A stretch of DNA of 64,000 nt. It comes from a virus. Taxonomy: Duplodnaviria; Heunggongvirae; Uroviricota; Caudoviricetes. Shown here piece after piece: positions 9,001-12,000 of this stretch (position 1 is the stretch's first letter; each line of letters starts with the position of its first letter). The position numbers were made by a program. The stretch lies in the IMG/VR virus record IMGVR_UViG_2651869782_000025. One strand, given 5' to 3'.

Positions 9001-12000
9001 GGCGGTGGGATGTCAAAACCGGTTGCCATGCTCCAAAGTGGCCGCAGTGTGGTTGTATTTATGGACCGCAGCGAAAAGTGGCCTGGAGAATCCTTGATGC
9101 CCAATACTTCGGAGTGGCACAACGACGCCGACGCGTGTTTGTTGTCGCAAGCGCTCGAACAGACCTCGATCCCGCAACGGTACTTTTTGAGTTCGAAGGC
9201 GTGCGCCGGGATATTGCGCCGAGCAGAGGCGAGGGGAAGGAAACTACCAGATATACTTCAAACATCGCTATCAGATCTTGCGATGATACAAACATAGTTG
9301 CCATGGCACATGGGCAAGGAGGGGCTGAGATAAAAACCGATAATTCGGCACCAACTTTGACATGTAACCATGAAGCACCAATTGTATTGCTCGGCGACGG
9401 TAGAATGCGCCGTCTTACCCCTATCGAATGTGAAAGGCTACAAGGTTTTCCTGATGGACATACATTGATCCCTACGGAAAAGCGTAAAAAAGTTTCTTCA
9501 GATGAACTGGCATATCTGCGCAATCACTATCCAGATTTAAGCGAAGAAGAGGCCGCGATGCTTGCAGCTGACGGACCGCGTTACAAAGCGATCGGCAATA
9601 GTATGGCGATACCAGTAATGCGCTGGATTGGCGAGCGGATTACCAAGGCTGCATGTCGGCAGAATGAAGGGCGTGAAACAAAAGAGCGAAAAGTTAAACC
9701 AGCGGCAGAATTCGAACGGTCCATATTCAAATGGGCTGGTGGAAAATTTGGTGTTCTGGAACAAATCTTTCGCTATTTGCCAGAAGGGAAGCGCCTGATC
9801 GAACCTTTTGTCGGTGGCGGAGCTGTCTTCACGAATGCCGGATACCAGGAAAATCTGCTAAATGATGTGAATGCTGACCTGATTAACTTTTACAAGACTC
9901 TGCAACGCGAGGCGCATTCACTTATCACACTGGCGCATCGGTTTTTCCAGGACTACAACACACAGGAAGGATACCTGGCAGTACGGAATGCGTTTAACAA
10001 ACAAGTCTATGATGATTTACATCGCGCAGCGGCGTTTTTGTTCCTGAACCGACATTGTTTTAACGGATTGACGCGTTACAACCAGGCCGGTGAATTCAAT
10101 GTCGGTTATGGGAAGTATAAAACTCCGTATTTCCCATTACAGGAGATGGAAGCCTTCCTCGGTGCGGAAGGGCGTTCTGAGTTTGTATGTGGTGATTGAA
10201 GCTGCCGGAGAAGGAGATGTCATTTTTTGCGATCCGCCATATGAACCGCTTCCAAATACAGAGGGATTCACGAACTATTCCGGTCATGACTTTAAGTTTG
10301 AAGAGCAAAAACGCCTGGTGTCTCTGTTGACGGATGCTCATCGCCGAGGTGCAAAGGTTCTCATTACTAACAGTGGCGCGCCAAACATCAGAGAGCTTTA
10401 TCATGACAGTGGCTTCAGAGTGGAACCTCTCTTTGCCAGACGTTCTGTGTCTTGTAAGGGGGACACTCGAGGTGTAGCTCATGACGTTTTAGGTATATTG
10501 CTCTAATAAATTTATTAGTGTAATATCGCTTCAATGAATCGTTATTTATAGAGCGATTTAGCTGTTAGCCGCGACAGGCGCGGCGGTAAGCATGGCTGGG
10601 CCTAGTCCTCCCAGACAAACCACCGAGTTGCCAGGTTGACCATGCGCCTAAGTGGTAACACCGAAGTGCGTTACGAGCTTCCAGTTTGCCCATCTTCGGG
10701 TGGGCGTTTTTTTCAGGGTTTTCGTCATGGTTAGCGACTTTGCGGCGGTTTAGAAACTGACCATTAAAGTAAATGCAAACGATGATCTGATGATGGTAGC
10801 GGCCTAAGAAGCCAGACGCCACGGGGTATGAGTCGTCCCCCGTCAAAAAATCGACCGCAGAGTGTCCCCGTCTGTGTATTAGGGAACGGGGAGGCATAAC
10901 AAGGTAAGGGCGCTGGTTCGATTAACCAGATGAGCGAGAAGGGGCCATCTTTTGGTCAGTGCCCTTACCTGTTACGTCCTTTTTCATTCAGCGTAACAGC
11001 CATTGCTTAATGGCATCCTGGGAGAATTTCTTGTAACGGGTATATCCCGTCATGCTGAAGGCGCTAATCACGCTGGAAGCCAGGGTTGTGCATCCCCTGT
11101 TACCGAATTGCAGCCAGGGCGCGGTGCGCCGAAAAGCATACGGAGGTGGAAGCCCTCGCCGGAGACGTACCCGGCAAGTGATGGTGTAGCTCAGCGGTTA
11201 GAGCGGTTGACTGTTAATCAACGGGTCGATGGTTCAAATCCATCCACCATCGCCAATGCCGGTTTAGCTCAGTTGGTAGAGCGCCTGCCTTGTAAGCAGG
11301 ATGTCAGCGGTTCGAGTCCGTTAATCGGCACCAGCACAACAGGTAAGGGTATTTTGCGACGTCGGAGATCGCCGAGCTTGGCAGAGGGTTCGAATCCCTA
11401 CGAAGTACCCTTACCGTTGTGAGGAAGCGCAGCTCTTTGAAGCAACCAGAAGATAAGCATCTGGCTTCACAACATAAACCGCAGGAACGACCAATAAACG
11501 GTAGTCCGTATGGAGAACACCCCGTTGAGGAAGAGGCCTGGCCGGAACCGTAACCGGCACTATAACGTTGAGAACACTGGCGTAACGGGGTCATATCCCA
11601 ATCTACGAATAAATGTTGCGTTGCAGCGTGACAACCAGTGTTCTCAACATTGTGGTGAAAGCGCGTTGCTGGCGCGCAAGTCCGCCCTATGGCAACGAGG
11701 CGGCGTAGTAAATATCGATGCCTTAGTCATCAAGCGCACTGACCGGCCTTATGGGCTATGAACAAAAAGAGGCGCAGTCGGAGATCAGCACCGACCACCA
11801 CAATCACTGGAGAGTAGGGAGCATGGTGCTCAAGCGGTCTTGAAATCCGTCCCGTCGCGCAAGCGATGATGGTTCGATTCCATTACTCTCCGCCAGCGCA
11901 ACGTTAAGAGTATTTGGCTAATTAAGCGAATGCCGGAAGCAGAACCGGATCACCAAATGCGTACAGGCGTCATCGCCGCCCAGCCAGCCAAATGCTCTTA

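Follow-up and report, generated by a model that had tools for sequence, protein, structure and literature searches.

In the stretch of viral DNA analysed here (64,000 nucleotides in full, hereafter the window), hrdC, a member of the RdgC family (7600..8505, + strand), is directly followed at its 3' side by dmt, and the hrdC stop overlaps the dmt start, as is likewise the case in P1 and P7. The hrdC assignment derives from the L005 gene call at 2099-3004 (window coordinates being these +5501), from a Pfam RdgC match and from the annotation of P1 and P7. The initial annotation had described dmt as two ORFs in different frames, the first ending in SEFVCGD and the second carrying DPPY, and both are indeed present in the sequence. 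The first (ORF1, 8502..10199, + strand, 565 aa) has the C-terminus GRSEFVCGD and ends at a premature TGA (10197-10199). Its C5-cytosine methyltransferase (MTase) domain is complete: PF00145 is matched with E=4e-36, and GGTPCQAFS, WENVPGV, QRRRRVFVV and AIGNSMAIP are all present, with motifs I, IV (PCQ), VI (ENV), VIII (QRRR) and X (GNS) lying within ORF1. Downstream of it, ORF1 also holds the N-terminal ~60% of a Dam domain, comprising the FVGGG AdoMet motif (~9807-9821) and the DNA-recognition region, which matches positions 1-151 of PF02086, the profile of the D12 N6-adenine MTases (E=1.6e-36).

The second ORF lies in the +1 frame, which is open over 10090..10506 and reads ...VVIEAAGEGDVIFCDPPYEPL...; gene callers start it at GTG 10162 (114 aa) or at GTG 10192 (104 aa). 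The 3' part of dmt in this frame (10192..10506, + strand) encodes VIEAAGEGDVIFCDPPY... up to the native stop and is otherwise undamaged, and it matches positions 169-243 of the 253-position PF02086 profile (E=1.5e-12). The catalytic DPPY motif (10231-10242) is found in ORF2 only and FVGGG in ORF1, which places the two motifs in separate polypeptides. In the intact P7 and P1 proteins, a single PF02086 match runs over positions 1-243; in the window, no single continuous ORF carries PF00145 followed by a complete PF02086. Since both ORFs match PF02086, and in consecutive parts of the profile, their pairing is evidently not due to chance.

When compared with the dmt/dam genes of Punavirus members, this 2.2-kb region is 97.1% identical to MH422554 and P1 isolates and 95.1% identical to P7. 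The proteins of P1 (Dmt, AAQ14041, 754 aa) and P7 (Dam, AAQ07538, 672 aa) are bifunctional C5-cytosine/N6-adenine MTases, and that of MH422554 also has 672 aa; going by the C5 variable region, the dmt of the window is of the P7-length form. The likeness of the P1 and P7 genes to that of the window comprises 95-97% nucleotide identity, the same two Pfam domains and a shared hrdC-dmt-tRNA/ban locus. All three relatives have intact dmt annotated as one gene, whereas the window allele lacks 14 bp and has its Dam domain split over two frames. Comparison with reference P1 dmt, earlier put forward as a check, thus reveals one continuous ORF and not a two-ORF arrangement, and the locus in the window is, to judge from these alignments, a Punavirus dmt orthologue carrying a disrupted allele.

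Aligned with P1, P7 and MH422554, the window shows a clean gap at the place of the missing 14 bp. The intact junction can be written as GTAT-GYGGTGATT-TTGCW-GCGGTGATT-GAAG, or, in the form taken from the alignment, as GTAT-GCGGTGATT-TTGCA-GCGGTGATT-GAAG, and the intact protein reads SEFVCGDFAAVIEAAGEGD across it. In other words, a 14-bp unit is present in 1.64 tandem copies in the intact gene, which amounts to a pair of 9-bp direct repeats with 5 bp between them. The window reads GTAT-GTGGTGATT-GAAG, and the sole repeat copy left, GTGGTGATT (10189..10197, + strand), is the deletion scar, as identified from the alignment and from the junction haplotypes of 105 related loci; the breakpoint can be placed anywhere in the shared GGTGATT (10191-10197). 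Among these 105 tabulated loci, the junction haplotype GCGGTGATTTTGCAGCGGTGATT (GCGG...GCA) occurs in 59 and GTGGTGATTTTGCTGCGGTGATT in 21, and the single-copy junction is confined to the window lineage. The GTGGTGATTTTGCTGCGGTGATT haplotype is the likely parent of the window allele, because the upstream G-to-T variant is common to both; even the nearest intact dmt of the loci compared (L105) is 30 substitutions away from it, and an immediate intact sister was not recovered. The earlier description of the lesion as a +1 frameshift that the removal of one base would repair is correct as frame arithmetic, a loss of 14 being equivalent to a gain of one, but not as an account of the event, as 14 bases are missing relative to P1, P7 and MH422554.

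Replication slippage between short direct repeats, leading to deletion or duplication, is a classic mutational mechanism. In the present case, one 14-bp unit has been lost between the 9-bp direct repeats (GTGGTGATT ... GCGGTGATT; 7 bp identical), most likely via slipped-strand mispairing at replication. The window resembles other such events in the 14-bp unit, in the 9-bp repeats and in that both products are observed, and there is nothing unusual about it except its location in dmt. The shift of -14 stops the protein at residue 565, 17 codons upstream of DPPY, and the expected product consists of a complete C5 domain and of the part of Dam with the AdoMet motif and the DNA-recognition region; this part would be unable to methylate adenine. 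The remainder bearing DPPY is out of frame and probably poorly translated or untranslated.

The reciprocal product was reached through P0136, a 104-aa protein resembling ORF2, which led to contigs with dmt split at the same place by a 14-bp duplication. These +14 alleles contain 2.64 units of the 14-bp repeat and were found in L010, L011, L012 and L015 (near 2980-3004 in each) and in L013 (~2368-2392). The duplication splits the gene into an ORF of 573 or 655 aa and one of 104 aa, with the stop of the first and the GTG of the second overlapping as GTGA. L010, L013, L015 and L012 (the last at 99.8%) have it in a P7-type background, and L011 has it in one of P1 type (98% identity, with a different C5 target-recognition, or variable, region), which implies no fewer than two independent events or transfers. 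Because the 14-bp unit is also duplicated in at least two other dmt backgrounds, this place in dmt is a small slippage hotspot. The duplication elsewhere is only a mildly new point, the -14 lesion itself being ordinary in kind, and the hotspot is a minor, reusable observation for surveys of P1-like phage-plasmids. Two further loci were considered as split alleles: L014 was rejected as a third case at the same spot, as it has an unrelated 1-bp deletion ~40 nt upstream that is possibly an assembly error, and L016 contains Ns.

Both variants are scarce. A 191-bp query across the junction was searched against E. coli and PLSDB, and none of the 479 matching complete-genome E. coli records or of the 469 matching PLSDB plasmids carries the -14 allele; all of them align with 14 extra bases, and the best identity of the query in these matches is at most 93.2%. 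The +14 allele, too, is found in none of the 479 complete E. coli records. Neither did the -14 allele occur in 18 phage records, nor was there a match to the exact junction in GTDB species representatives or JGI metagenome contigs; the same scan of IMG/VR returned one contig, which belongs to the window lineage. A gapped pattern scan of IMG/VR gave 91 stretches and, of the 80 listed, all have the reference length bar one of the window lineage. The -14, reference and +14 states all exist, the variant states make up less than 1% of records, and the -14 allele is rare.

As for the enzyme itself, the reconstructed Dam half can be aligned from end to end with E. coli Dam, a GATC N6-adenine MTase (PDB 2G1P, 4GBE; E=9e-58), including FxGxG and DPPY. 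The window polypeptide stops upstream of DPPY; FxGxG and DPPY, which an active D12-class enzyme has in one polypeptide, are not found together in either product of the window dmt. The break aligns to CESYA of E. coli Dam, ~17 residues before DPPY, which in the numbering of that protein we take to be C163-A167, with DPPY at 181-184. As a complete Rossmann-type catalytic domain is present in neither fragment, the ability to methylate adenine has most probably been lost. On the best reading, the Dam half became non-functional recently and the C5-cytosine half is intact.

Some reinitiation on the intact ORF2 is nevertheless possible, and the ORF2 frame offers restart codons at TTG 10183, GTG 10189 and GTG 10192, the two GTGs lying 5-8 nt before the ORF1 stop. 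A ~104-aa fragment with DPPY made in this way might then associate with the ORF1 product to form an active MTase. In favour of such a two-piece Dam, ORF1 and ORF2 together cover all Dam residues bar ~3 (FAA), the stop and the candidate starts are at most 8 nt apart, and the +14 alleles have the stop/start overlap described above. The halves of E. coli Dam can reconstitute when brought together, but in split DamID they do so only if tethered by fusion partners (PMC6451315). The signals for translation are weak: Shine-Dalgarno pairing is at background level for GTG 10189 (-3.1 kcal/mol) and GTG 10192 (-2.2 kcal/mol), the gene median being -5.75, and the GGAG upstream of GTG 10162 is 16 nt away from it. 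TTG 10183 has a moderate value of -6.2 kcal/mol, and, by this scoring, ORF2 has no convincing start of its own. What the window has in common with the split DamID halves and with M.AquI, a two-subunit methyltransferase, is a catalytic domain encoded as two adjacent pieces; it differs from them in that the arrangement is a recent mutation and no conserved design, rare and young. Selection on ORF2 is not readable from sequence decay, because all copies of the allele are identical and hence too young. We regard a functional two-piece enzyme as very unlikely, and it is highly improbable that the dmt repeat acts as a recurrent hotspot whose coupled ORFs reassemble into such a Dam or serve as an on/off switch for phage GATC methylation.

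The switch taken by itself, with the 14-bp unit as a contingency locus turning the Dam half on and off by phase variation in P1-like plasmids, would have its counterpart in phase-variable MTases (phasevarions), for instance the mod genes with their long tetra- or penta-nucleotide tracts, in which repeat copy number also shifts the MTase frame. States with 0.64, 1.64 and 2.64 units all exist in nature, and the +14 state recurs across backgrounds. However, the ON state of dmt has only 1.64 units, and an array of fewer than two units is far below known phase-variable repeats; the OFF alleles are very rare (0/479 complete genomes for either, and 1/91 IMG/VR contigs, of which 80 are listed); and the -14 state of the window, with its single repeat copy at 10189-10197, lacks the second repeat required for reversion by slippage and is in that sense irreversible. 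Among the relatives compared, no sign of switching at the dmt repeat was found, and the chances of this explanation are slim indeed.

A further alternative, raised with the initial annotation, is a sequencing or assembly error hiding an intact dmt in the true molecule. Short-repeat indels are a frequent error type, and the allele was seen in none of the complete E. coli genomes or PLSDB plasmids. The 565-aa product is nonetheless encoded in exactly this form on 12-22 contigs (12 by the cluster table, 22 read) from NCBI, ENA and Logan, the longest of 75,010 bp, and the exact 114-aa downstream product is likewise present in NCBI, ENA and Logan assemblies. The sources are GCA_001265265.1, ERR3899693, SRR18158996, SRR14860290, SRR14860337 and ENA, the Logan runs among them belonging to different accession series, and all DNA fetched from these contigs matches the window at 100% identity for up to 13.4 kb, the junction included. 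In addition, the local sequence presumed to be parental is found in 21 IMG/VR contigs, every one of them intact, which argues against a systematic artefact of that sequence, and the 23-bp repeat region is shorter than read length and assembly k-mers. An error is scarcely credible in the face of independent assemblies that agree, and the -14 junction is by all appearances a heritable allele of one clonal lineage. Finally, the idea of a slippage-controlled gene, in which full-length Dmt arises through transcriptional slippage or a programmed ribosomal frameshift of +1 (or -2), has next to no likelihood, for although ORF2, in the +1 frame with respect to ORF1, overlaps the end of the latter, and the arithmetic would permit it, the last ORF1 codons GGT GAT TGA allow tRNA-Asp no re-pairing in the +1 frame, there is no slippery sequence and no homopolymer run upstream of the ORF1 stop, the window has no repeat for reversion, a signal would be expected to be conserved yet ~1,000 relatives have a plain, uninterrupted ORF, and even a perfect shift would give a protein ~5 residues short in the Dam core.

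Of the three proposals made at the outset, the data support that of a true pseudogenisation of the adenine-MTase half. The lesion is disabling, real and absent from orthologues, P1, P7 and MH422554 each having one continuous ORF, and on the available sequences this amounts to a pseudogene. With a high degree of confidence, we interpret the locus as a P7-type dmt that underwent a 14-bp deletion between direct repeats and recently lost its Dam half, a loss probably tolerated through host Dam and relaxed selection. The locus would best be annotated as a dmt pseudogene, or as a C5-only truncated dmt arising from a 14-bp deletion; it should neither be recorded as two genes nor be 'corrected' as a one-base sequencing error.

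The sites at which GATC methylation matters are present in the window, in agreement with the earlier remark that its pac and oriR are rich in GATC. The pac site (36655..36836, + strand) is a GATC cluster inside pacA, a gene with 96-97% identity to those of P1 and RCS47, and has GATC sites on both sides, four on one and three to four on the other. A cluster of five GATC sites that adjoins repA (4921..4975, + strand, with the GATC sites at 4921-4972) is of the oriR type by its sequence, and from knowledge of P1 we take it to function as oriR. In P1, GATC methylation at pac is required for cleavage, and dmt becomes indispensable only if the host is Dam- (PMC12707154). Host Dam would methylate both pac and oriR of the window lineage, and in this manner the loss of the Dam half would be tolerated; if that half is lost, the lineage relies wholly on host Dam for these two GATC-rich sites.

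Relaxed selection refers to the state of the element as a whole. Relative to MH422554, ~29 kb are missing (coordinates 13507-42372), including lysin, ssb, dar, cin, tail fibres, baseplate, sit and pmgABC. In the window, portal/pro (to 59175) is joined to icd/ant/repL (from 60595) via a TnpB gene of the IS605 family (59222..60430, - strand; Pfam OrfB_IS605 and Cas12f1-like_TNB), with the synteny break at 59176-60594. The junction recurs at 99.99-100% identity in a 70,460-bp ENA metagenome scaffold (L112), in which a further 6,349 bp link window end to window start and complete a circle of ~70.35 kb (about 70,349 bp); no PLSDB plasmid covers at least 80% of the junction region (window 56249-63955). 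From this gene content, we infer that the element is defective and unable to make virions unaided. Because it would be unable to build tails or lyse cells, it would have little use for timely pac methylation, and the absence of the lysis and tail-fibre genes is consistent with a neutral loss of the Dam half. Tolerance of the loss is probably explained by the host supplying Dam together with a ~70-kb element already devoid of the lysis/tail-fibre block. The dmt break, a case of ordinary gene decay, affects a plasmid from which ~29 kb of phage genes are also missing, and it fits a reduced, ~70-kb P1-like plasmid that carries cargo (type I restriction-modification, a SIR2-like gene, fimbriae) and lacks tail-fibre and lysis genes.

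This cargo is found in several places. A complete type I restriction-modification system (hsdR 1038 aa, hsdS 401 aa, hsdM 520 aa; 27802-33805, - strand) sits in a 6.2-kb segment unmatched in MH422554. Further cargo at 45954-47261 and 48002-56248 takes the place of the P1 res/mod-darB region. It comprises a protein with a SIR2_2 domain, whose gene may serve in defence, a fimbrial operon of the chaperone-usher type (usher at 51782..54199) and a protein resembling DsbA (49692..50333). Within a 1.4-kb segment absent from MH422554, a membrane protein of 387 aa assigned to sulphur transport (PF04143) is encoded at 15651-16814 (- strand), and the GCA_001265265.1 contig ends within this segment, at window position 15982. 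On the 3' side of dmt, four tRNA genes (Asn-GTT, Thr-TGT, Ser-TGA and Met-CAT) occupy 11180-12934; here, 11660-11990 and 12126-12849 are unmatched in MH422554, and 11983 marks the end of two Logan contigs.

The C5 half of dmt is itself variable among relatives. Its central part is replaced between P1 (430 bp, L001 1325-1754) and the window and P7 (184 bp, window 9224-9407); the replaced part is presumably the target-recognition region, which suggests that dmt alleles differ in cytosine-methylation specificity. Many P1-like plasmids also carry, in dmt, an intein of ~340 aa (Hint_2 + LAGLIDADG_3) that is absent from the window; it is inserted at the catalytic cysteine of C5-MTase motif IV (GGTPC | intein | CQAFS) and is present in P0060 and ~60 other proteins of 850-989 aa, and in RCS47-type dmt. 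Elsewhere in the window, the sole internal repeat (40478-40812 and 61835-62169; 336 bp, 85% identity) is shared between two antirepressor (ANT/KilAC) genes.
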